From: an uncultured SAR86 cluster bacterium
GTDB lineage: Bacteria > Pseudomonadota > Gammaproteobacteria > Magnimaribacterales > D2472
Direction: 5' to 3'
DNA length: 64,000 bases
Assembly (NCBI GenBank): GCA_902557965.1
Contig: CACECK010000001.1
Coordinates: 22,939-86,938 of the forward strand
The notes beneath the pieces are model-generated. The model was not told the DNA's origin, searched no databases, and was given only the letters and a program-made list of their open reading frames with translations. The position numbers and the translations under genes are program-made. Of the stretch, positions 5,336 through 49,992 are shown piece by piece (the first letter of the stretch is position 1; every line of letters begins with the position of its first letter).

Positions 5336-6244
5336 TTAATAAATATAAATGAAGAGGAATGAAAATATTAGAGCAACTAGCCATAAAATTAAAGCAAATG
5401 AGAAATTTCTAATATTTATGGCTGATATTGATTTAATATTAATTTGAGTACCAATGCAAAAAAGTGCTCCAAGAATTAAAACATTGCTTAAAAGTTTTAA
5501 CATACCAGTTACTTCATTTCCTAAATTAAGTGTTGTGCCAAAAAATATTGCTAAAACAAAAAGTATGACAAAAAGTGGTGTCTGAGGTTTAGAATTTCCG
5601 TCTTTATAAAATATTCCAAGTACGACTATAAGAGGTATCAACCATAATGTTCTCAAAAGTTTGAGAGTCGCTGCTGTATCTAAGGCTCCATCTCCATATG
5701 CCATTGCCGCTCCAATGACAGAACCAGTATCATGTATTGCCATTGCAGTAAAAAAGCCAAATTGTTCAAAAGACATATCAAGATTTTTACCAATAATTGG
5801 GAATGCAATTATTGCAAATGCATTAAATAAAAAGATTATTCCTATGGATACCAGTAATTCTTTTGGCCTTACATTAATTACTTGCGAGACTGCTGCCATT
5901 GCGGTTGCTCCACAAATTGCAGTTCCAGAAGATATTAGGAGGCCCAATTTAAAATCAATTCTTAAAATTTTTGCCAATAATATTCCAACAAGAAATATGA
6001 TCAAAACATAGGCTGAAATATAAAAAAAATAATAAGAAGTTAGACTTATTACAGTTGAAGAAGAAATTGTAAGGCCAAGAATAACAATGCCTGTTTTTAG
6101 CAAGTTCCCCCCTGTTGCGTCTGGAATAAAATTCTTTGGCGGTCTTAAGGCAGTGGTAAAAAGAATACCTCCAATCAAAGCAAATATTGGAGAATTGGCT
6201 GCTACTGCAAGAAAAGCTATTGGAAGTCCAATATATAGGTGCAT
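5336..6244 (-). CDS. YeiH/UPF0324 family putative sulfate exporter
   Basis: 302 aa polytopic membrane protein. The SSGTAICGATAMAA segment is typical of UPF0324. Confidence 0.7.
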   Translation of the reverse strand: MHLYIGLPIAFLAVAANSPIFALIGGILFTTALRPPKNFIPDATGGNLLKTGIVILGLTISSSTVISLTSYYFFYISAYVLIIFLVGILLAKILRIDFKLGLLISSGTAICGATAMAAVSQVINVRPKELLVSIGIIFLFNAFAIIAFPIIGKNLDMSFEQFGFFTAMAIHDTGSVIGAAMAYGDGALDTAATLKLLRTLWLIPLIVVLGIFYKDGNSKPQTPLFVILFVLAIFFGTTLNLGNEVTGMLKLLSNVLILGALFCIGTQINIKSISAINIRNFSFALILWLVALIFSFLFIYIY

Positions 6245-7083
6245 TATAAGTGTTGAATTATTAATGTAGGTACGTTGTGGGTATGAGATTTTACTGTTGC
6301 TACAAGAGTATTTTCTTTCAAGCCAGCCTTAATATCTGAAACCTCAACCCCTTCAGATACTAGCCTTTTATGAGTATCCTCAATAGTCTCAACTTCCCAT
6401 GCTAAGCCCCATAAGGTATCTTTTGGTTTTTCATTATTTGATCTTTCTACTACTTCAATGGTTGTCTTATTTAATCTGAAAAATAACATCCTGCTATTCC
6501 AGTGCTCGATAGTTTTATCAAGCGCTAGTCTAATTTTAAAAACATCTCTATATATTTCTATGAAACTATCTGCATTATTGGTATTGATAACAACATGATC
6601 GAGTTTATTAATTGAATCTTTTGCATATTCTTTGTGTGAGGGCAGTTCGCCATCATGATGTTGAATAATAAATGAGAATAAACCACGAGTTAATTCTGGT
6701 GGCAAAAATAAGTTATGCCACTTTCTTACTTTGTTGGTCTCATTATCAGACCCTTCGCCTTCAGCTGGATCTGAGATCTGATATCCTTCTTGTTTAAGCT
6801 GCTGAACTGTTTGAAGCATGTCATCAACTCCAAAAACTATACCGGCTAATCCTTCTCCATTTTCTTGTATTAAATTTTTTATAAGCTCAGCACCAAGTCC
6901 TTCTCCATCTGAAGTTAAGAGTTCTAAATACGTATTCTTGAAATTAAATATTGAATTAGCAGTTCCAAGGCTTTTGTGCCTTCCTCTCCATACAGGATTA
7001 GTGCCAAGTATTTTTTTGTAATTTTTTTCAGCTTGATCTAAATCTTTAACGGCAATGATTAAATGATCTAAAGTTGAAATCAT
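6244..7083 (-). CDS. two-domain VOC/glyoxalase-like protein
   Basis: 279 aa. Begins LDHLIIAVKDLDQAEKNY. A second half (LDHVVINTNN...) repeats the fold. Confidence 0.7.
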   Translation of the reverse strand: MISTLDHLIIAVKDLDQAEKNYKKILGTNPVWRGRHKSLGTANSIFNFKNTYLELLTSDGEGLGAELIKNLIQENGEGLAGIVFGVDDMLQTVQQLKQEGYQISDPAEGEGSDNETNKVRKWHNLFLPPELTRGLFSFIIQHHDGELPSHKEYAKDSINKLDHVVINTNNADSFIEIYRDVFKIRLALDKTIEHWNSRMLFFRLNKTTIEVVERSNNEKPKDTLWGLAWEVETIEDTHKRLVSEGVEVSDIKAGLKENTLVATVKSHTHNVPTLIIQHL

Positions 7084-7964
7084 TATGATTTTTTACCAAA
7101 TTTAAATAAGCCTCGAACAAATGGAAGAATCCATATTATTTTTAAAAAGTTTCTTGGGAAGAGTCTGCTCATCAAATCATAAAAGTGGGCATCAATTCCG
7201 ATAAGTATTCTTTTATTTTTCTTTTTAATATTTTTTAGAATTACTTTTGCAGCATGTTCTGGGCTCGTGGGAGCATTATGTTTAAAGTTTATACCAGCCT
7301 CTTCTTTTGTTGCTGCATTAGCACCAAAAATAGCAGCACCTGCGTCGTCAGCTTCAAAGCTTTTAAATTTTGCAGACGAGTATATGTTTGTTCCAATGTG
7401 GCCAGGGAAAACACAATACACCTCTACTGGTGAATCTGAAACTTCCATCTCAAGTGCCAAAGATTCTGTAAATGCCTTAACTCCAAACTTGCCAACATTA
7501 TAAATGGATTGTTTAGGCACACTAAAGAGACCAAAAATTGAAGAAGTGTTAATAATTGCAGCCTCGGGTCTTTTTTCTAATAATGGTAAAAATACTGTGG
7601 TCATTTGGATAACTGAGTTCAAAAGAATGTCCAGCCCAAAATTCCAATCACCCTCATCAACTTCTTTTACTGATCCAACAATTGAAAGCCCTGCATTATT
7701 AAAAACCATGTCTATTTGGTTATGATGTGACATTACTTGGTTTGGCAAGTTGCTAACTTTTTCCCTGTTACTGATGTCAAAAGCATGAGTTGAAACAGCG
7801 ACATTTTTCTTTTCCAGCAATAACTTTGTTTCTGCTAATGAATCTGCATTCCAATCTACAAGAGCCAAGCTGCAGCCACTATCAGCTAACTCAACAGCCA
7901 AAGCTCTGCCAATCCCGGAACCTGCTCCGGTGATTAAGGCTACTTTTTCTTTAAAATCCTTCAA
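7083..7964 (-). CDS. SDR family oxidoreductase
   Basis: TGAGSGIGRA cofactor motif, NNAG, and the YNVGK catalytic YxxxK. Confidence 0.9.
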   Translation of the reverse strand: MKDFKEKVALITGAGSGIGRALAVELADSGCSLALVDWNADSLAETKLLLEKKNVAVSTHAFDISNREKVSNLPNQVMSHHNQIDMVFNNAGLSIVGSVKEVDEGDWNFGLDILLNSVIQMTTVFLPLLEKRPEAAIINTSSIFGLFSVPKQSIYNVGKFGVKAFTESLALEMEVSDSPVEVYCVFPGHIGTNIYSSAKFKSFEADDAGAAIFGANAATKEEAGINFKHNAPTSPEHAAKVILKNIKKKNKRILIGIDAHFYDLMSRLFPRNFLKIIWILPFVRGLFKFGKKS

Positions 7965-7974
7965 TTAAAAAATC

Positions 7975-8496
7975 TCAATCTTTTAGTTTCATTTGTCCAA
8001 CAAAATCTAATTTACCAATTTTAAGACCTTTCATTCTGAGCATGTCGTAAAAAGTGGTTAAATGGAAATAAAAATTTGGTAATGAAAAAGATAATATAAA
8101 ATCTGTTGCAGTGAAAGGCCAAGTTATTGACCCCATCTTAAAGATTACTTCCTGTCCTGCAAGGTTATCTATCTCAGATGAGTCTATGTTCTTGAGATTT
8201 TCTTCTGCCTCTTTAAGCATATCTCTACAGTTCTCAAAGTTTAGATTATCTGGCATCTTTGGAGGTCCAAATTCTCCTGTTCTTAAAGCGTCTAATGCGC
8301 CTACTGAATGATGCACTATGCTGAATACTTGGAATGTAAATGGAGACATGTCTTTGTAAAGTTGCATTTCAACAATTTCTTGTGAGTCAATATTGTTTTC
8401 TTTACAAAATTCCTCAGCTTTTTCAATGATATTTGATGCTGCTGATACCATTTGAATGTATGTCCCCAAAGAAACATTGCTTAATGAAGCGCTCAT
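7975..8496 (-). CDS. DUF1993 domain protein
   Basis: 173 aa. The C-terminal LPNFYFHLTTFYDMLRMKGLKIGKLDF matches the DUF1993 signature as I recall it. Confidence 0.7.
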   Translation of the reverse strand: MSASLSNVSLGTYIQMVSAASNIIEKAEEFCKENNIDSQEIVEMQLYKDMSPFTFQVFSIVHHSVGALDALRTGEFGPPKMPDNLNFENCRDMLKEAEENLKNIDSSEIDNLAGQEVIFKMGSITWPFTATDFILSFSLPNFYFHLTTFYDMLRMKGLKIGKLDFVGQMKLKD

Positions 8497-8509
8497 AGTG
8501 ATCTCCTTA

Positions 8510-8833
8510 TTAATTGGTCTTGTATATATTTACAATTGTTACACCTAGAACTATAAGAAATAATCCAACGATTGTCTGCCAATTTAATGTTTGTTTATAA
8601 AAAAAATAACTCAATATTGCTATAGAAAATATTCCTATGCCAGACCAAGAGGCATAAACTATTGATAAGGGAAGTTTTTGTGAGACGATTGCTAAAAGAT
8701 AGAAAGAAAAAGCATAGGCAGTCATTAAAACTATTGTTGGAACGATTTTTGTAAAGTTTTGTGAGGCAGGAAGCAACATAGTTCCACAAACCTCTAAGAT
8801 GATTGCGAAAAACAACAAAAAATACGTATTCAT
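8510..8833 (-). CDS. SMR family multidrug efflux transporter
   Basis: 107 aa with 4 TM segments. The conserved membrane Glu sits in ILEVCGT (EmrE/SugE-like). Confidence 0.85.
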   Translation of the reverse strand: MNTYFLLFFAIILEVCGTMLLPASQNFTKIVPTIVLMTAYAFSFYLLAIVSQKLPLSIVYASWSGIGIFSIAILSYFFYKQTLNWQTIVGLFLIVLGVTIVNIYKTN

Positions 8834-9363
8834 AAGTTATATTTACTAATGACTATATAGTATACAACCGATAGAATTGTGGTAATTAACATGACTATAG
8901 GTCCAATCATCTCAAACAGTGCAAACGTGCCTGCGCCTAATATAAATATATAACCTATTTCTTTTTTGCTATTAAGGTAACCCTCATTAAGTGCAGCCTT
9001 TAAAATGAAGTAATTTACAGGTAAATAAAGCAATATACCTGTTACGGCCCCAGGACTAAAATCTAAAAAATAAAAACTAAAAAAAACATGAAAAAAAGCA
9101 TTCACTACTTGTGTAGTCATCAGGAAAAATAAAATCACATGGGCGCTTGCCTTATTTTTTGTAATGGAATGTATAAAAACCCAAACTAGCAATAAAGCTA
9201 GCAGTCTTAAAAGAACCTCTTCCGTTGAAAGAGAATTATTATCCAGAAAGTATTTCAGCCTCCACTCTCTAAAATTAAAAATTATGTGTTCTTCAAAGTG
9301 ATGAATGGCATATATCAATGGTCCCAAAATTATTAAGTTTTTGAACTCTTTCATATGGAGCAA
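8830..9363 (-). CDS. HXXEE domain membrane protein
   Basis: 177 aa, multi-TM. HHFEEH motif near the N-terminus. Overlaps the downstream SMR gene by 4 nt. Confidence 0.6.
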   Translation of the reverse strand: MLHMKEFKNLIILGPLIYAIHHFEEHIIFNFREWRLKYFLDNNSLSTEEVLLRLLALLLVWVFIHSITKNKASAHVILFFLMTTQVVNAFFHVFFSFYFLDFSPGAVTGILLYLPVNYFILKAALNEGYLNSKKEIGYIFILGAGTFALFEMIGPIVMLITTILSVVYYIVISKYNL

Positions 9364-9437
9364 TATAAGAATTTAAAAGTGGTACGGCAGCATCCACCGA
9401 AATTTTGATTCATATTAGTTTTAAAAAAATCTAATAT

Positions 9438-9485
9438 TTATTTTGCGCAGCAAGAACACTCACAGCAATCACAACAATCACACAT
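9438..9485 (-). CDS. candidate micro-ORF encoding a 15-aa peptide with 9 Cys (MCDCCDCCECSCCAK)
   Basis: Hand translation of the minus strand: ATG at 9485, TAA at 9440-9438. An in-frame GTG at 9500 would give MYTCNMCDCCDCCECSCCAK. No clear SD. It lies in the 155-bp gap between the VOC gene and the HXXEE gene. Confidence 0.3.
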   Translation of the reverse strand: MCDCCDCCECSCCAK

Positions 9486-9518
9486 ATTGCAAGTATACAC
9501 TATTCAAATTGCTGAGCC

Positions 9519-9944
9519 CTATGTCAGTGATTTGTTAAAAATTTGACTGTCGTGCTTAAACGATTTGAATTCAAGGGCATTACCAAAGGGATCTTTAAAA
9601 AACAATGTTTTTTGCTCTCCAGGCTGCCCCTCGAACCTTAAATAAGGCTCAATAATAAAATTGATGCCACTAGATTTTAGTTTTTCTGAAAATATGTCGA
9701 ACTGTTTCCATTCAAGCACAATCCCAAAGTGAGGTATTGGCACATCTTTACCATCAACTTCATTAGAAAAGCTGTTTGATTCACCTATGTGACATACTAG
9801 TTGATGGCCAAAAAAATTATAATCAATCCAATGTTCGTCTGATCTACCTTCATTAAATCCTAATTTTAAGCCATAGAATTCTCTTGCTAACTCAATGCTG
9901 TTTACTGGAATTGCTAGATGAAATGGTCTTAGATTCATGATCAA
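9519..9944 (-). CDS. VOC family protein (glyoxalase/extradiol dioxygenase-like)
   Basis: 141 aa. FHLAIPVNSIELAREFY and the FKDPFGNALEF C-terminal motif. Confidence 0.75.
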   Translation of the reverse strand: MIMNLRPFHLAIPVNSIELAREFYGLKLGFNEGRSDEHWIDYNFFGHQLVCHIGESNSFSNEVDGKDVPIPHFGIVLEWKQFDIFSEKLKSSGINFIIEPYLRFEGQPGEQKTLFFKDPFGNALEFKSFKHDSQIFNKSLT

Positions 9945-9951
9945 TTATTTT

Positions 9952-10320
9952 TTATTCAGTCACGATTCCAATTTTAAGTCTCGCAATGGCGTTTCTTTCA
10001 TCTGAATCATTTAATGACCATGAACTATTTAATAGTCTTGTTGAGTATTGCTTGTTATATAAGAAAGGCATTATTAATTGAAAAAGGCCAAATGTGACCA
10101 AAGAAAAAATTAAATGGAATACACCAATTGATATTTCTCCTCTAAAAATAGGAACAAAGAAGCCAAAGAAAAAATAAGTCCAAGAGTACCCAACAAAACA
10201 ATTTTTTTGAATACCTGATTCATTATGCTTAACTTTAATTTTCTTTTGCCATCCAAGGACAAGGGTGCCAATTATCATAGGAGAAAAAATAAGAAGTAAA
10301 ATTGAAAATGTTAATGCCAA
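9952..10320 (-). CDS. hypothetical membrane protein
   Basis: 122 aa with 3 predicted TM segments. No confident family. Confidence 0.6.
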   Translation of the reverse strand: MALTFSILLLIFSPMIIGTLVLGWQKKIKVKHNESGIQKNCFVGYSWTYFFFGFFVPIFRGEISIGVFHLIFSLVTFGLFQLIMPFLYNKQYSTRLLNSSWSLNDSDERNAIARLKIGIVTE

Positions 10321-10401
10321 TGCTCACTCCTGCAAGCTCTGCCTTTAAAATTATTACAATTTGTAAAAACTGAAACGACTGGTTCTTTTATATTCATAAT
10401 T

Positions 10402-10812
10402 TTATGACTCTTTATTTGGATCCCATATCACCAAGTTTTTGGTTTTTAGTCTATTTACAACTAACTTGTATCTTGATTGCTCTTCCTTCCATTCCTTTAA
10501 CCATGTTGCGCCGTCTCTCTCTGCATCAACAAAGACTGCATTGGTAAATGCTAAGGGTAATATTACTGCAACGTGAATCGCTATACTTGCCACGGTATTA
10601 TAGTTAAAGAGCCCTAGATAGTTTGCTGCCAGAAATCCAAAGAACACACTCCATATAGTAAACAAAACTAACATAAAGTATGTCTGTAAACTTGGATCAG
10701 GTATGTGCCTTAGTGGATTATATCTAACGTCCATTACTCTTCTCCAGCCACTTACAAGTTTCATAACAGTTCTTCTGAATAAACTAGGTTTTTTTGTATT
10801 TGGTTCAATCAT
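10402..10812 (-). CDS. hypothetical membrane protein
   Basis: 136 aa. AGGAGG lies 4 nt upstream of the ATG. Two central TM segments. Confidence 0.65.
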   Translation of the reverse strand: MIEPNTKKPSLFRRTVMKLVSGWRRVMDVRYNPLRHIPDPSLQTYFMLVLFTIWSVFFGFLAANYLGLFNYNTVASIAIHVAVILPLAFTNAVFVDAERDGATWLKEWKEEQSRYKLVVNRLKTKNLVIWDPNKES

Positions 10813-10909
10813 CTTTCCTCCTTTTAAATCTTATAAACTCTTTAATGACATGCATACCAACAGCCATCCATGTCACTATAACCAAACTCCAAAACAATAT
10901 CTCAATCAT
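10805..10909 (-). CDS. candidate 34-aa single-TM protein overlapping the start of the downstream gene
   Basis: Hand translation: MIEILFWSLVIVTWMAVGMHVIKEFIRFKRRKDD. Its stop TGA (10807-10805) overlaps the ATG at 10812 (gATGATTGA). Too short for the ORF track. Confidence 0.3.
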   Translation of the reverse strand: MIEILFWSLVIVTWMAVGMHVIKEFIRFKRRKDD

Positions 10910-10984
10910 GTAAATTTAACAAATTTTTAATTCTTTTTTAAAATTTTTTGAAAGTTTTTTCTTTGAAAACCATTCTATCTTGTT

Positions 10985-11671
10985 TCATCGCCTTAATAGT
11001 ATAGCGATCCAACGACCAAGATTTAAAATATCAGCTAACGCTGCCGACACATAAGTGAGGGCTGCTGCTCTAAGAATGCGACTAACGGCTTTTTCGTTTG
11101 ACTGTGACACGTATTTCCCTTCCCTCAATATAGGAAGTGCTTTAGAAAAACTTGCATCAAATTCAATAGGTAAAGTTACCACATGAATCATCATGCGAGC
11201 TATAAAACCGGATAGCCCTAGAAAAAGTAATAAAGAAAATGGCATTGGATGTCGGGTAATAATACCAATCACTGGGGATAAAGAAATAATTGCTACACTC
11301 CAACGGGCCACTTTATCAACAACGGGAGCCATCTTTGTTCTGGTTGCCAGACGTTTATCACCTTGCTGATCCTGAATCGCATGTCCAACCTCATGAGCCG
11401 CGATAGCGATTGCGGTTAATGATTTAGATTCATAATGCTCTCGCAAAAGCCTAACTTTTTTTTCAATTGGATCATAGTGATCTCCTAGCTCAGTTACTTC
11501 GACCTCAACGTCTTTTAAAGAAAATCGCTCAATCAAGTGCTGTGCTAGCTCTCCGCCAGTACCTGGGATTTCAGGCTTTTCCAATGAATACCTCTTCATG
11601 ACCAACTTTACCCACAAAGATGGTCCAAATATTAGTGCTAAAACTACGAGCAAGCCCGCTGCTAAAAACAT
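10985..11671 (-). CDS. zinc metallopeptidase (membrane-associated, HExxH)
   Basis: 228 aa. HEVGHAIQ zinc motif. N-terminal TM and C-terminal TM segments, as in the putative neutral zinc metallopeptidase family. Confidence 0.8.
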   Translation of the reverse strand: MFLAAGLLVVLALIFGPSLWVKLVMKRYSLEKPEIPGTGGELAQHLIERFSLKDVEVEVTELGDHYDPIEKKVRLLREHYESKSLTAIAIAAHEVGHAIQDQQGDKRLATRTKMAPVVDKVARWSVAIISLSPVIGIITRHPMPFSLLLFLGLSGFIARMMIHVVTLPIEFDASFSKALPILREGKYVSQSNEKAVSRILRAAALTYVSAALADILNLGRWIAILLRR

Positions 11672-12050: not shown

Positions 12051-12107
12051 TTTAAATCTCTGTTTTCTTCTACTCCACCGCCACTGATTAGTTTTAAAGA
12101 GTGATTT
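12051..12107 (-). repeat. glmS-3'-end-like repeat, copy 4 (core 12070-12087)
   Basis: The core ctactccaccgccactga reads tca gtg gcg gtg gag tag (SVAVE-stop) on the minus strand. Class-A flank aaatctctgttttctt at 12054-12069. Confidence 0.6.
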
Positions 12108-12480
12108 ACATATCTAGCAATGGATTTCTTCCCCATTTATTTTCATCTTCTTTTGCTGGAAGCATTAGTATAATTGAAATTACGAATAGCCCAATAATTG
12201 TAATGTAGGATAATTGCCACCATCCAGAAATACCTCTATCTTGAAGTCTTCTTGAGGTTATTGATGTAGCCGGAATAATAACTACGATTTGAAAAAGCGC
12301 TGAAAGTGGTCCATAACCAAATTCTTCACTAAATATTCCTGCCGGTGTTTCAAGCAATGCTAAAAAGAATGATATCAGAGATATAGAAAGTGTAAAATAC
12401 CAAAACTCGCTTCTGCATGCTCTTCCGCTAAAATTTTTCCAGTTTATAAAACCTGAAATAAATGATTCTTTAATATTCAT
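12106..12480 (-). CDS. DUF805 family inner-membrane protein (paralog 2)
   Basis: GRACRSEFWYF and SRRLQDRGISGWW motifs. The ATG at 12480 overlaps the upstream stop (ATGA), so I prefer it over the track start at 12498. Confidence 0.85.
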   Translation of the reverse strand: MNIKESFISGFINWKNFSGRACRSEFWYFTLSISLISFFLALLETPAGIFSEEFGYGPLSALFQIVVIIPATSITSRRLQDRGISGWWQLSYITIIGLFVISIILMLPAKEDENKWGRNPLLDM

Positions 12481-12902
12481 AGTGGATTTCTTCCCCATTT
12501 ATTTTCATCTTCCTTTGATGGCAGCATTAGAAAAATGAAAATTACAAAAATCCCAATAATAGTGAAATAAGATAATTGCCACCATCCTGAGATTCCTCTG
12601 TCTTGAAGTCTTCTGGAGGTTACAGATATAGAAGGAAATAAAATAATTGCATTAAATATTAAGGTTAATGGTCCAATAGGATTTCGTACACTTTGCCATT
12701 CTTTATCTCTAAACTCTATTCCATAGGAAAGTATAGTTGGAAAACCCTCAATGGATGCATAAAGAATTGCTTCGATAAAACTAATCAAAAAACCTGCAAT
12801 AAATAATGCTAAGCAAAAATACCAGAACTCACTTCTACGTGCCCTTCCACTGAAATTATTCCAATTATTAAAAACTGATATGCATGCCTCTTTTATGCTC
12901 AT
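12477..12902 (-). CDS. DUF805 family inner-membrane protein (paralog 1)
   Basis: GRARRSEFWYF and SRRLQDRGISGWW. The C-terminal ~55 aa are near-identical to the downstream paralog. Confidence 0.85.
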   Translation of the reverse strand: MSIKEACISVFNNWNNFSGRARRSEFWYFCLALFIAGFLISFIEAILYASIEGFPTILSYGIEFRDKEWQSVRNPIGPLTLIFNAIILFPSISVTSRRLQDRGISGWWQLSYFTIIGIFVIFIFLMLPSKEDENKWGRNPL

Positions 12903-25206: not shown

Positions 25207-26046
25207 TTATTTTTTTAGCTTCTGGATTATGGAATCTAACTCATCTAACGTTTTGTAGAAAATGGACACTTTGCCTGCTTTTTTATTTTTTGTATCTATT
25301 TCTATTTTATGTCCAAAGCTTTCAGACATATCTCTTTCAACATTCAAAATGTCTGTATCTTTGGTGTTTTGTTTAATGTTTTTGCTGGTAGCTCTTTTTG
25401 AGGTTATTCCGCTTAAATCTTTTATTGACAATTTGTTCTTAACAATTCTTTTTGCTGTTTCCTCTGCTTCTTTTTTTTCCATTGATACTAAAAGTTTTGC
25501 GTGACCTTTTTCTATTTCCCCTTTTGAGAGCATTTCTAGAACTGGATTTGGAAGAGATAGTATTCTTAAAGAGTTTGCTATTGTGCTTCTTGCTTTTCCT
25601 GTTGATGTTGCTACCTCATCTTGTGTTAAGCCAAACTCTCTCTTGAGCCTGTCCAAACCCCTTGCTTCCTCAACAGGATTAAGGTCTTCTCTTTGCAGGT
25701 TTTCTATTAAAGCTGAAACAAGCGCATCTTGATCTTGTTTTTGATCAACTAGACATGGTATTGAAGTTAATCCAGCTTTTTTAGACGCCCTCAATCTTCT
25801 TTCTCCGGCTATCACCTCGAACTCATTTAGTCCAAGCTCTCTAACCAGAATTGGGGAAAGAACTCCCTGGTTTTTTATGGAATTTGTAAGCTCCTCAAGC
25901 TTTCCATCATCAAAATTTGACCTTGGTTGAAATCTTCCTGGCTTAATTTTCTCTAACTCTATTTCTTTTACTGTTCTTTGGTTGGGTGTTGTTTGGCCTA
26001 GAAGCGCATCAAGGCCTTTGTTTAGTATTTTTTTTTCTTCAGACAT
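25207..26046 (-). CDS. parB: ParB/Spo0J chromosome partitioning protein
   Basis: 279 aa. GERRLRA (ParB box) and an HTH segment. Confidence 0.95.
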   Translation of the reverse strand: MSEEKKILNKGLDALLGQTTPNQRTVKEIELEKIKPGRFQPRSNFDDGKLEELTNSIKNQGVLSPILVRELGLNEFEVIAGERRLRASKKAGLTSIPCLVDQKQDQDALVSALIENLQREDLNPVEEARGLDRLKREFGLTQDEVATSTGKARSTIANSLRILSLPNPVLEMLSKGEIEKGHAKLLVSMEKKEAEETAKRIVKNKLSIKDLSGITSKRATSKNIKQNTKDTDILNVERDMSESFGHKIEIDTKNKKAGKVSIFYKTLDELDSIIQKLKK

Positions 26047-48713: not shown

Positions 48714-48843
48714 AAATTGATGTATCAAAAAGATATGATACGTACGAAAAATTTATAATTTACTTTGTTGTATATATAAAAATGACTTATAATGCATCAT
48801 AAGCTAATTATATTATTAAGACACACATACTTTTGGGCGGATA

Positions 48844-49992
48844 ATGTTTTTTAAACTTTTTAAAATATTGAAAGGGAAAGCTATTCCTTTTTATTTACTA
48901 TTGATATCACCTGCTCTTTCTGCAGATTGGTTTGCGTTAAATATGACGAGGGGTATTACTGATATAAGTAACGAAGTTTTTGAATTGCATATGCTTATAT
49001 TTTGGATATGCGTAGCAATTGGAGCACTTGTTTTTTCTGTAATGTTTTATTCTATGTGGGCGCACACAAAAGAGAAAAATCCAGTCCCAGCAAAATTTCA
49101 CGAAAACCACAAACTTGAAATTGCATGGACGATTATTCCTTTTCTTATTTTAATAGCCATGGCAGTTCCTGCATCAAAAACACTTGTAAAAATCTATGAT
49201 GATGAAGCTGGAGATATAAATATCCAAGTTACCGGATATCAGTGGAAGTGGCAATACAGGTACCTTGAAGACGACGTAAGCTTTTTCGCAAATTTATCAA
49301 CAGATCTAGATGAGATTTATAATCTAGTTCCAAAAGGTGAAAATTACCTTCAAGAGGTTGATGAGATGGTAGTAATTCCTGCTGGCAAGAAAATTAGATT
49401 CTTAATAACAGCAAATGATGTTATTCATTCATGGTGGATGCCTTCATTTGCAATCAAGCAAGATGCAATCCCTGGATTTGTAAATACAGCTTGGACTATT
49501 GTTGATGAGCCAGGCATATATAGAGGAAAGTGCACAGAACTTTGTGGAAAGAATCACGGATTTATGCCCATTGTTGTAAAAGTAGTCGAACAGGCTGAGT
49601 ACGAAGAATGGGTTTTCGGTAAGAGACAAGAAGCAATTAAACTGGCTGAATTGACTACCAAAGAATGGTCTGCAGAAGAGTTAGTTGCCCGAGGTGAAGG
49701 AATTTATGAAGTCAATTGCGTTGCATGTCATCAAACATCTGGCCAGGGGATTTCAGGAATATTTCCAGCTCTTGCCGGCAGTGATATCGTAATGAATAAC
49801 AAAGATAGAAATATTGAAATTTTAATGGAAGGTGTCCAAGGTGCAGCAATGAACTCATTTAGCTATTTATCTGAAGTTGAACTTGCAGCAGTAATTACTT
49901 ATACAAGACAGTCCTGGGGTAATGCAGACAAAGGTGACGGAGAAATTGTTATACCAAAGGACATTGTTGATTATAAGGAACCAAAAATTTAA
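48844..49992 (+). CDS. coxB: cytochrome c oxidase subunit II with C-terminal cytochrome c domain
   Basis: 382 aa. CuA site HSWWMP...CTELCGKNHGFM, plus a CVACHQ heme c motif. Confidence 0.95.
   Translation: MFFKLFKILKGKAIPFYLLLISPALSADWFALNMTRGITDISNEVFELHMLIFWICVAIGALVFSVMFYSMWAHTKEKNPVPAKFHENHKLEIAWTIIPFLILIAMAVPASKTLVKIYDDEAGDINIQVTGYQWKWQYRYLEDDVSFFANLSTDLDEIYNLVPKGENYLQEVDEMVVIPAGKKIRFLITANDVIHSWWMPSFAIKQDAIPGFVNTAWTIVDEPGIYRGKCTELCGKNHGFMPIVVKVVEQAEYEEWVFGKRQEAIKLAELTTKEWSAEELVARGEGIYEVNCVACHQTSGQGISGIFPALAGSDIVMNNKDRNIEILMEGVQGAAMNSFSYLSEVELAAVITYTRQSWGNADKGDGEIVIPKDIVDYKEPKI

Follow-up and report, generated by a model that had tools for sequence, protein, structure and literature searches.

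On the evidence of its sequence, the micro-ORF at positions 9438..9485 (minus strand) of the window, the whole 64-kb stretch of SAR86 DNA analysed here, is a real, unannotated gene carried across marine SAR86 bacteria. It encodes the 15-residue peptide MCDCCDCCECSCCAK, eight residues of which are cysteine. The reading that we favour, with a probability of roughly 0.55, is that of an independently transcribed leaderless micro-gene whose peptide acts in trans, most likely as a metallothionein-like thiolate ligand. Mechanistically, a strong -10 element located 6 nt before the ATG would make the A of the AUG the first transcribed nucleotide, and the leaderless mRNA would then be translated into an acidic 15-residue peptide of the form M-C-D-C-C-x-C-C-E-C-x-C-C-x-K. 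If the initiator methionine is removed, as expected before cysteine, 14 residues with 8 thiols would remain. The entity under selection would be the peptide itself, working in trans in the cytoplasm, putatively as a minimal metallothionein-like chelator or buffer for Cu(I), Zn, Cd and Hg or, equally possibly, as a sacrificial thiol scavenger.

The coding sequence runs from an ATG at 9485-9483 through 15 codons to a TAA at 9440-9438, with its cysteines arranged as C-x-CC-x-CC-x-C-x-CC, and the minus-strand letters quoted for 9438-9500 in the initial annotation agree exactly with the sequence. The ORF listing of the window gives the frame as 9438..9500(-), with a GTG start and the translation MYTCNMCDCCDCCECSCCAK. 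This 20-residue product from a GTG at 9500, also proposed in the initial annotation, has to be rejected: a GTG at -15 occurs in just 5 of 160 sequences, and position -13 is variable. Upstream in-frame starts are not conserved; 83 of the 160 have none, and 26 sequences have an in-frame stop at most 6 nt upstream. The cysteine content, previously put at about 60%, is indeed high, but the exact figure is 53% for the ATG form (8/15), 45% for the GTG form (9/20) and 57% (8/14) if the initiator methionine is removed. Similarly, the nine TGY codons counted within 12 are eight in the densest 12-codon run, the ninth cysteine belonging to the non-conserved upstream extension. Across the six frames of the 64 kb this run ranks first (8/12, with a runner-up of 6/12); in 100 second-order Markov simulations the maximum number of cysteines per 12 codons was 4 in 34 runs, 5 in 62, 6 in 3 and 7 in 1, and never reached 8.

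A pattern search of related genomes and marine metagenomes, as had been proposed, found the frame and its cysteine codons conserved. With codons Cys12, Cys13 and Lys15 left unconstrained, this degenerate search matched 59 species-level genomes, with one match per locus and genome, and at least 120 marine metagenome contigs, while viral contigs gave no match. All 59 genomes are SAR86 or unclassified marine Gammaproteobacteria/Pseudomonadota MAGs, and within these searches the micro-gene appears to be restricted to the SAR86 lineage of marine Gammaproteobacteria. The 183 copies fall into 34 variants that share the consensus given above and have exactly 15 residues in 168 cases; the three Cys-Cys pairs are invariant across copies, and hydrophobic or aromatic residues are absent from all 34 variants. 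Loci anchored on the neighbouring HXXEE gene, a set unbiased with regard to the peptide, showed the micro-gene in additional lineages, where D3 and E9 are preserved. Neither paralogues nor divergent copies were found in the flanks of the loci. At least one SAR86 lineage (L007) lacks the micro-gene in 6.5 kb spanning the complete island, so that the gene is dispensable or relocated there.

At the Cys, Lys, Glu and Asp codons variation is limited to third positions, and at the Cys and Lys codons it is of the synonymous type only. L002 encodes an identical peptide with four nucleotide differences, all synonymous and at third positions of the Cys frame. At the codons that the search had left free (12, 13 and 15; 148 unique sequences), positions 1 and 2 are invariant and position 3 reads C/T 92/56, C/T 139/9 and A/G 50/98, respectively; in the same set the stop codon interchanges among TAA, TAG and TGA, and the flanks have an entropy of about 1.1-2.0 bits per column. 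Start and stop are fixed in the sense frame only, with a stop at codon 16 in 141/153. Synonymous sites also carry a strong, position-specific bias (codons 2-4 T-ending, codons 7-10 and 13 C/G-ending), which shows an added mRNA-level constraint beyond our best explanation. Selection for an open 5' end was considered as the source of this bias and discarded, the effect being weak (z +0.35); the lower MFE is due to the extra G/C content.

Could the tract be something other than a gene? TRF detects within the coding sequence a 9-bp tandem repeat TGT-GAT-TGY of 3.1 copies (9455..9482, minus strand), which encodes (CDC)(CDC)(CEC); every antisense frame is open across it, the synonymous sites are biased at the nucleotide level, and the ORF has been recorded by no gene caller. 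That the ORF arose by chance in this 9-bp repeat or (CAN)n tract, or that the tract is a conserved element of non-coding RNA or DNA whose letters happen to read as Cys codons, is nevertheless highly improbable. Repeat copy number and core length are constant in the 183 copies and in the unbiased HXXEE-anchored set, the third-position-confined variation and interchanging stop codons speak against it, as does an ATG and stop conserved in the sense frame alone, and the cysteine density was not reached in the simulations. Moreover, the consensus RNA fold has an energy of -2.7 kcal/mol with 0 compensatory pairs, leaving no conserved structure in or after the ORF, and an Rfam search returned nothing relevant and no leader family. 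The chance frame in a (CAN)n low-complexity tract, one of the readings offered by the initial annotation, is thus refuted, as 59 genomes and over 120 metagenome contigs keep the frame, start, stop and length. Of the warning signs it had named, length polymorphism of the repeat was not seen, and orthologous regions conserve the frame, start and stop instead of breaking them by indels or stops.

Other frames in the region were set aside. In the hydrophobic +1 frame (VIVV...), the differences between the window and L002 are all non-synonymous, and start and stop are not conserved; in L005 a gene caller annotated this frame as a 44-aa ORF overlapping the micro-gene. The antisense frames, all open because the tract has no stops, do not have conserved boundaries, including the one that shares third positions with the sense frame. 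A second 20-codon uORF (9351-9413), which overlaps the start of HXXEE, is interrupted by stop codons in L076, L129 and L160. The micro-gene product is absent from a 15-billion-protein collection, and searches of Pfam, NCBIfam and PDB (E<=10; four reading-frame versions, 20-27 aa) found no matches, with low power for such short queries. The SAR86 'non-coding RNA' of Dupont et al. is unrelated, being sited in a carbohydrate-metabolism region.

Upstream of the ATG, a -10 promoter hexamer TATACT (9492..9497, minus strand) occupies positions -12..-7, counted from the A of the ATG. Of 160 unique sequences, 155 have a -10 box at precisely this distance of 6 nt from the ATG, as TATAAT (81), TATACT (61) or a close variant, and TATA[AC]T-N6-ATG has only 2 occurrences in the 64-kb window. 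The adjoining extension T-A-G-T-g (9498..9502, minus strand) is conserved as well: positions -17..-13 read T-R-G-T-n across the family, the T at -17 being present in 135 of 148 sequences, the G at -15 in 111 and the T at -14 in 120. The L190-L204 lineage has a canonical extended -10, TGcTACAAT. No conservation extends upstream of -18. The 6-nt spacer that separates the -10 box from the ATG (ttgcaa... t; 9486..9491, minus strand) is fixed in length and variable in sequence, with an entropy of 1.4-1.95 bits at columns -6..-1 and no Shine-Dalgarno (SD).

The genome otherwise uses SD sequences; taking the best candidate start per window gene, the median anti-SD duplex energy is -5.75 kcal/mol, as against +0.1 kcal/mol for the micro-ORF. 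The initial annotation had noticed the missing SD and lowered its confidence for it; the observation holds, whereas the penalty falls away, since the conserved -10 box would place the transcription start at the AUG. From promoter geometry, transcription is predicted to start at the A at 9485, and the fixed TATAAT/TATACT-N6-ATG with no SD implies a leaderless mRNA, for which an SD would not be needed. Leaderless mRNAs are rare in Gammaproteobacteria. Contigs beginning exactly at the ATG, which might hint at transcript ends, yielded none that was convincing.

The micro-gene sits in an island of shuffled cassettes, with no gene family consistently adjacent. In the window it occupies, as initially described and as Pfam and the coordinates confirm, a 155-bp gap after a VOC/glyoxalase gene (9519..9944, minus strand; PF00903), ahead of a same-strand pair formed by an HXXEE membrane protein (8830-9363, minus strand; PF13787; probable ATG at 9354) and an SMR transporter (8510-8833, minus strand; PF00893). 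The distance to HXXEE, given before as 75 nt, is 74 nt from the TTG at 9363 but 83 nt from the ATG at 9354, the start supported by relatives. HXXEE and SMR may be co-transcribed in the window genome but are variable cassettes. The VOC/glyoxalase gene belongs to a variable cassette: it lies within 8 kb of the micro-gene in only 4 of 59 genome loci and is unlinked in most genomes. HXXEE is directly downstream in 13 loci and directly upstream in 20. MerC occurs no further than 8 kb away in 22 of 59 genomes and adjoins the micro-gene in 22 loci. In L190-L204, MerC directly follows the micro-gene, and the block that they share includes PepSY_TM and HupE/UreJ. The cassettes of the island hold small detoxification, transport and thiol-related genes (MerC, SMR, HXXEE, glyoxalase/VOC, cupin), and the MerC-type association, which is one of the island, could be passive linkage. 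No metal-sensor or regulator family recurs next to the micro-gene (MerC is a transporter), and no conserved operator was found.

This arrangement bears on a different explanation, a cysteine-responsive leaderless attenuator of the 'Cys ribulon' type, in which scarce Cys-tRNA would stall the ribosome and thereby alter the downstream gene on the same transcript. Its architecture would be that reported by Canestrari et al. (2020, bioRxiv 10.1101/834739), with the predicted leaderless start and Cys-Cys codons, of which the ORF has three pairs. In 131 of 145 loci (90%) the next gene shares the strand of the micro-gene, at a median distance of 74 nt, and some spacers of 36-37 nt have no evident terminator hairpin, which makes co-transcription likely. 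SAR86 also relies on exogenous reduced sulfur, and the synonymous sites are constrained, a feature that in Ms5788A reflects RNA pairing. The downstream genes themselves, however, belong to some 29 unrelated families in 60 genomes, among them MerC, BD-FAE hydrolase, HXXEE, NosD-like, methyltransferase and bPH, and none acts in Cys or sulfur metabolism. In 7 of the 60 genomes the next gene is convergent (L024 confirmed by eye; n=14 convergent loci, with a gap of 32-57 nt in 8), and there an attenuator would have no cis target.

The RNA between the micro-gene and its neighbours also argues against attenuation. The spacer to HXXEE measures 83, 88 or 36-37 nt depending on the genome, so that neither its length nor its sequence is conserved even ahead of the same gene. 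A small hairpin, GGUGGAUGCUGCCGUACCACU, followed by a U-run (9378..9398, minus strand) lies in this spacer, is specific to the 83-nt-spacer subgroup and is absent where the spacer is 36-37 nt (L018, L033, L128); it may be a weak terminator, outside the conserved unit. Family-wide, terminator-like hairpins are present in 14% of loci versus 5% of shuffles, and a general terminator is lacking. Base-pair probabilities between the Cys tract and the 140 nt downstream do not exceed those obtained after shuffling the downstream sequence (mean z -0.19), downstream structure is not in excess (MFE z -0.41), and the whole-spacer fold in the window gives z -0.15. In addition, the search found one match per genome and not a multi-operon regulon, and a stalling sensor needs neither an invariant Lys15, nor a fixed 15 codons, nor purely polar variable positions. 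An attenuator is for these reasons unlikely. The same holds for the Cys-codon leader that the initial annotation had envisaged as controlling the HXXEE/SMR pair, the ORF being constant while the downstream gene changes.

A trans-acting thiolate peptide is accordingly favoured over a cysteine-sensing attenuator on account of the variable and convergent neighbours, the lack of downstream structure and the lack of excess Cys-tract pairing. Support for action in trans comes from the conservation of K15, which the search had left unconstrained, of length and, among the unbiased loci, of D3 and E9, and from the absence of hydrophobic or aromatic residues in the variants. A tiny metallothionein-like peptide, already among the first proposals, is the best fit by composition and context, while homology to known metallothionein families was not found. 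The peptide has the composition of a metallothionein: it is small and very high in cysteine, with C-x-C and C-C motifs and no aromatics. SAR86 is without sulfate assimilation and depends on exogenous reduced sulfur (Dupont 2012); eight cysteines in a 15-mer thus imply strong selection on the thiols. A bolder version, in which SAR86 would carry the smallest gene-encoded metallothionein (14 mature residues, 8 thiols), leaderless and serving as a lineage-wide cytoplasmic sink or buffer for Cu, Zn, Cd or Hg together with island-encoded transporters such as MerC, is one that we advance tentatively, as we think it somewhat less likely to be right than wrong.

The same conservation would serve other roles in trans: a redox or electrophile scavenger, an Fe-S or persulfide carrier, a cysteine or sulfur store, or a RiPP-like substrate of enzymes encoded elsewhere. 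Among the enzymes of the island are families in which thiol cofactors are common, glyoxalase/VOC for example, and SAR86 imports glutathione (Dupont 2012). Against this, no modifying enzyme or partner gene is conserved beside the micro-gene, and the sequence data do not separate such roles from metal binding. For a RiPP precursor in particular, 15 residues are too short for the usual leader-plus-core layout, with no room for a leader, and no modifying, transport or immunity gene is consistently adjacent. We give this group of roles a low probability and retain the metallothionein-like ligand as the preferred reading.

SAR86 is among the most abundant bacterial lineages of surface-ocean heterotrophs and has been known from genomes since 2012, and yet the micro-gene has stayed unannotated; its absence from the 15-billion-protein collection means that a conserved 48-nt gene can escape every annotation of a globally abundant lineage. 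Metal binding by the peptide would, if real, push down the size limit of metallothionein-like proteins and provide an easily synthesised molecular player for marine Cu, Cd, Hg and Zn speciation and bacterial quotas. As the smallest metallothionein, it would tie the trace-metal economy of SAR86 cells to their reduced-sulfur economy. If it were a cysteine sensor, the leaderless polycysteine attenuator principle would extend from Actinobacteria to a sulfur-auxotrophic marine gammaproteobacterium. Either way, the fixed TATAAT-N6-AUG, with its predicted start, would make the micro-gene a clean, testable case of leaderless expression in Gammaproteobacteria.

Among known systems, the closest in architecture are the mycobacterial leaderless polycysteine sORFs (Ms5788A/Rv0815A and others) that make up the 'Cys ribulon' of Canestrari et al. 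Both are unannotated, SD-less and rich in consecutive Cys codons, with a start at the mRNA 5' end that was measured there and is predicted here; as a rule each is the first ORF ahead of genes on its own strand, and conservation is in each case within a single lineage. The mycobacterial sORFs, in contrast, precede cysteine-metabolism operons at several loci per genome, and their Cys-codon RNA pairs with the downstream SD, whereas SAR86 has one match per genome, neighbours that are variable, unrelated and sometimes convergent, and no detectable pairing or structure of this kind. The SAR86 peptide also keeps its non-Cys residues and its length, and the phylum differs (Gammaproteobacteria). The SAR86 gene shares with the ribulon a leaderless start, as judged by promoter geometry, and at least two consecutive Cys codons, but neither a Cys/sulfur operon downstream nor a Cys tract that sequesters a downstream ribosome-binding site.

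Classical leaders such as trpL, hisL, leuL and pheL resemble the micro-gene as very short ORFs enriched in codons for one amino acid and placed upstream of same-strand genes; they are, however, SD-led, fold into a terminator/antiterminator pair and precede the matching biosynthetic operon, and the micro-gene shows none of these features. Phytochelatins and synthetic (Glu-Cys)n are short acidic-Cys peptides that chelate Cd, Hg and Cu via thiolates, and the SAR86 peptide resembles them in its D/E-Cys alternation. Natural phytochelatins are products of enzymatic synthesis from glutathione and contain gamma-Glu bonds, while the SAR86 peptide would be ribosomally encoded and has Cys-Cys pairs.

With metallothioneins (SmtA/BmtA, Pseudomonas MTs, MymT, fungal Cu-MTs), whose properties we compared as described in PMC7387436, the peptide shares small size, extreme cysteine content, C-x-C and C-C motifs and the lack of aromatics. 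Its spacer residues are likewise acidic or small polar, and buffering of thiophilic metals or reactive species would be plausible. Unlike SmtA, it lacks a His ligand as well as any zinc-finger-like fold element, and unlike bacterial MT loci it has no adjacent metal sensor among the neighbour families seen. Its cysteine fraction of 53-57% is roughly double that of a usual metallothionein. Bacterial metallothioneins have about 50-80 residues, and the SAR86 peptide is far smaller; among the very small fungal Cu-MTs that of Neurospora crassa has about 25 residues with 7 cysteines, and the SAR86 peptide is shorter even than the smallest fungal metallothionein.

The minus-strand sequence quoted for 9438-9500 in the initial annotation matches the window exactly, and the neighbours are those it described: a VOC/glyoxalase gene upstream, and HXXEE (PF13787) and SMR (PF00893) genes downstream, all on the minus strand. 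The ORF at 9438..9500(-), listed with a GTG start, encodes MYTCNMCDCCDCCECSCCAK. Its cysteine content had been somewhat overstated: the densest 12-codon stretch holds eight Cys codons rather than nine, and Cys makes up 8/15 residues (53%) when translation starts at the ATG (9485) and 9/20 (45%) when it starts at the GTG, not about 60%. No other stretch in any of the six frames of the 64-kb window (34% GC) is as dense, and 0/100 second-order Markov simulations attained eight Cys codons per 12. The tract itself is a 9-bp tandem repeat (TGT GAT TGY) present 3.1 times, which yields CDC-CDC-CEC. The runner-up in density (6/12), at 25576-25611(+), lies antisense to a 279-aa gene (25207-26046(-)) and is most likely due to chance.

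Relatives of the HXXEE protein number in the hundreds in marine metagenomes, and the contigs of several were fetched and scanned for Cys-dense frames. In the related locus L002, the micro-gene lies upstream of HXXEE with a different upstream neighbour and encodes an identical peptide; its four nucleotide differences from the window all fall on third positions of the Cys frame, and each would be non-synonymous in the +1 frame. Two other loci, L004 and L005, carry the variant MCDCCSCCECTCCSK 1.7 kb from HXXEE, ahead of a BD-FAE hydrolase gene. The next search took codons 1-10, back-translated with degeneracy, as its pattern and covered species-representative genomes, marine metagenome contigs and viral contigs. 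It matched 59 genome stretches, one match each, all from the SAR86 cluster or from unclassified marine Gammaproteobacteria/Pseudomonadota MAGs, and at least 120 metagenome contigs; the viral contigs gave zero matches. The conservation of frame and Cys codons that the initial annotation had proposed to look for in relatives and metagenomes is thus present. To remove ascertainment bias on Asp3 and Glu9, further HXXEE-anchored loci were rescanned with relaxed settings (at least 5 Cys, ORF of at most 45 aa). This revealed the micro-gene in two further lineages, as MCDCCKCCECSCCS between DUF6607 and MerC and as MCDCCDCCECSCCSK after a DUF481 gene, with both acidic residues intact in each. The micro-gene is widespread, not universal, since one lineage (L007-L010) has the complete island without a copy within the 6.5 kb examined.

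Among the matches listed and the first set of HXXEE-anchored loci, 183 copies represent 34 peptide variants, with a length of exactly 15 aa in 168 copies and the consensus M-C-D-C-C-[DSKNT]-C-C-E-C-[STAND]-C-C-[SAPTDG]-K. None of the 34 variants contains a hydrophobic or aromatic residue. As the search pattern fixes codons 1-5 and 7-10, we took the unconstrained positions as informative. Across 148 unique sequences among the matches listed, codons 12 and 13 are invariably TGY, with third positions C/T of 92/56 and 139/9, codon 15 is invariably AAR (A/G 50/98), and the stop codon interchanges between TAA, TAG and TGA, while the flanks show an entropy of about 1.1-2.0 bits per column. Because one antisense frame shares the third positions of the sense frame, periodicity alone cannot tell them apart, and all six frames were therefore tested. 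Start and stop are conserved in the Cys frame alone, with the stop at codon 16 in 141/153 sequences among the matches listed; the other five are either closed or lack conserved boundaries where they are open. The 9-bp repeat number does not vary in any copy. A chance frame in a low-complexity tract, one of the readings first offered, is refuted by this constant repeat number and these frame-specific boundaries, and we regard it as very improbable that the micro-gene is not a gene. Judging from the substitution pattern, it is protein-coding with the 15-mer as its product. The 20-aa form starting at GTG does not hold up: among 160 unique sequences in the matches listed, GTG occurs at -15 in 5, no upstream in-frame start whatsoever exists in 83, and in 26 the 6 nt before the ATG include an in-frame stop. 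As to existing annotation, a collection of 15 billion proteins contains no N-extended form of the ORF. By the same substitution pattern, a 44-aa ORF annotated by a metagenome gene caller over the micro-gene in the +1 frame of L005 (3271-3405(+), GTG ATT GTT ...) is spurious.

A near-invariant hexamer occupies -12..-7 from the A of the ATG, being TATAAT in 81 and TATACT in 61 sequences among the matches listed, and its spacing to the ATG is exactly 6 nt in 155 of 160 unique ones. It is preceded by T-R-G-T-n, which in one lineage gives TGcTACAAT, a canonical extended -10. The six bases between hexamer and ATG are among the most variable columns, and the -35 region is weak. By the established spacing of promoters, a -10 box whose last base is at -7 places the transcription start on the A of the AUG, so we infer a leaderless mRNA, for which this evidence is strong but indirect. 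The missing Shine-Dalgarno sequence had been noted correctly (anti-SD duplex energy +0.1 kcal/mol; about half of the window's genes, in a crude set, have an SD core of at least 4 nt), but with a leaderless start it no longer lowers confidence. TATA[AC]T-N6-ATG occurs only twice in 64 kb. The sole other occurrence, at 48756-48800(-), likewise stands ahead of a 15-codon ORF, MMHYKSFLYIQQSKL, in the intergenic stretch preceding the gene at 48844; it may be chance or mark another leaderless micro-ORF.

In SAR86 genomes the micro-gene is a positional ortholog, located downstream of a Zn_peptidase_2 gene (10985-11671(-) in the window) and upstream of a Glyoxalase_3 gene (6244-7083(-)). These bound a cassette island (6244-11671), nearly all on one strand, in which HXXEE, MerC, SMR, cupin, DUF6249, BD-FAE, VOC, SDR and SnoaL genes are shuffled between genomes. 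Counted inside 8-kb loci, MerC is found in 22/59 genome loci, SMR in 21/59, DUF6249 in 16/59, HXXEE in 15/59, cupin in 13/59, SDR in 10/59, BD-FAE in 7/59 and VOC in 4/59; MerC directly adjoins the micro-gene in 22 loci among the matches listed. In one SAR86 lineage (L190-L204, e.g. L190 5489-12492) the micro-gene lies between DUF6607 and MerC, directly upstream of MerC, and encodes a 14-aa peptide without the C-terminal Lys. The block continues with PepSY_TM, a 363-aa protein, DUF3604, rotamase and HupE/UreJ, possibly a metal-handling theme. Near the island, the two overlapping genes at 12106-12498 and 12477-12902(-) are tandem paralogues with a common N-terminal motif, ...NFSGRA(R/C)RSEFWYF...; this motif recurs in a 28-codon fragment at 10311-10397(-), possibly what is left of a gene.

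Among known systems, the nearest is that of the mycobacterial leaderless polycysteine sORFs, which lie upstream of cysteine-metabolism operons and in which the RNA of the Cys codons base-pairs with the ribosome-binding site downstream, except when ribosomes stalled on these codons prevent it (Canestrari et al. 2020, bioRxiv 10.1101/834739). By analogy, the micro-gene could be a cis-acting, Cys-sensing leader for the gene that follows, a role we consider unlikely. The immediate downstream genes of 60 genomes belong to about 29 different families, including MerC, BD-FAE hydrolase, HXXEE, a NosD-like beta-helix protein, a heme-motif protein, a methyltransferase and a bPH protein, none of them for cysteine or sulfur metabolism. 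The next gene is convergent in 7/60 genomes and in 14/145 loci overall among the matches listed; inspection of L024 by eye showed the micro-gene as a monocistronic unit flanked by two gene ends, 32 nt from its convergent neighbour. Neither the structure of the 140 nt downstream (mean z -0.41) nor their pairing with the Cys tract (mean z -0.19) exceeds that of shuffled sequence, as is also the case for the structure of the intergenic RNA around the micro-gene in the window (z -0.15), and no Rfam family matches. RNAalifold gave a consensus of only -2.7 kcal/mol with zero compensatory pairs; terminator-like hairpins occur in 14% of loci vs 5% of shuffles. The spacer before HXXEE measures 83, 88 or 36-37 nt depending on the genome, and the degenerate search finds a single match per genome. 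Given these neighbour, folding, spacer and copy-number results, membership in the attenuator class fails on three defining features, and the proposed leader for the HXXEE/SMR pair is disfavoured with it. Moreover, conservation extends to Lys15, to the acidic residues and to the precise length, indicating selection on the peptide itself. The micro-gene is a coding unit that is conserved, gives a single hit per genome and has a promoter of its own; purifying selection acts on its peptide whatever the neighbours.

Within the 83-nt spacer, one subgroup only carries a hairpin (GGUGG...CCAC plus a U-run, 9378-9398(-)) that may be a weak terminator or local regulatory stem. The arms read GGTAG/TACC or AGGTA/TACCT in relatives (L001 1-21; L129, L160), changes that may be compensatory, and the hairpin does not occur with the 36-37-nt spacer. 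A candidate coupling uORF at 9351-9413(-) (20 codons, MNQNFGGCCRTTFKFLYCSI), with its stop overlapping the HXXEE ATG (ATATGA), keeps a same-length counterpart in L002 and L147 but is probably not real, as stops break it in L076, L129 and L160.

Synonymous sites also show a strong bias that differs by position. Among 54 genome copies, codons 2-4 end in T in 53-54, codons 7, 8, 10 and 13 are TGC in 81-98% (vs 39% genome-wide), Glu9 is GAG in 93% (vs 31%) and Lys15 is AAG in 70% (vs 24%). The first 12 nt are slightly more open than in synonymous recodings (z +0.35), and natural sequences are more stable overall (z -1.39) owing to extra G/C content alone. This additional constraint could stem from leaderless initiation, tRNA-Cys anticodon decoding or an RNA role.

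Mechanistically, transcription would start at the AUG, the leaderless mRNA would be translated and the initiator Met would be removed, Cys at the second residue being permissive for methionine aminopeptidase. The predicted product, acidic and 14 residues long, carries eight thiols (C-x-CC-x-CC-x-C-x-CC) and would act in trans as a thiolate peptide. Vicinal Cys pairs are typical of Hg/Cu-handling proteins. On account of its composition, these pairs and the detoxification and MerC context, we favour, at a probability of roughly 0.55, either a metallothionein-like peptide of minimal size that chelates or buffers thiophilic metals, or a sacrificial thiol scavenger; the same conserved peptide serving in some other trans-acting role is a minor possibility. 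SAR86 takes up no sulfate, has no assimilatory sulfate reduction and imports glutathione (Dupont et al. 2012), so cysteine is costly to these cells. The metallothionein-like peptide first suggested survives in part: the Cys-rich 15-mer is conserved, but metallothionein families, NCBIfam models and PDB chains gave no match, in searches to which such short queries lend little power. Full-text literature searches returned no paper tying SAR86 to a metallothionein, and none on a small, cysteine-rich, leaderless bacterial protein with a link to metals. The micro-gene differs from the leaderless polycysteine sORFs in failing the defining tests of the attenuator, and it is akin to them in kind, not homologous, as its peptide is to metallothionein-like peptides.
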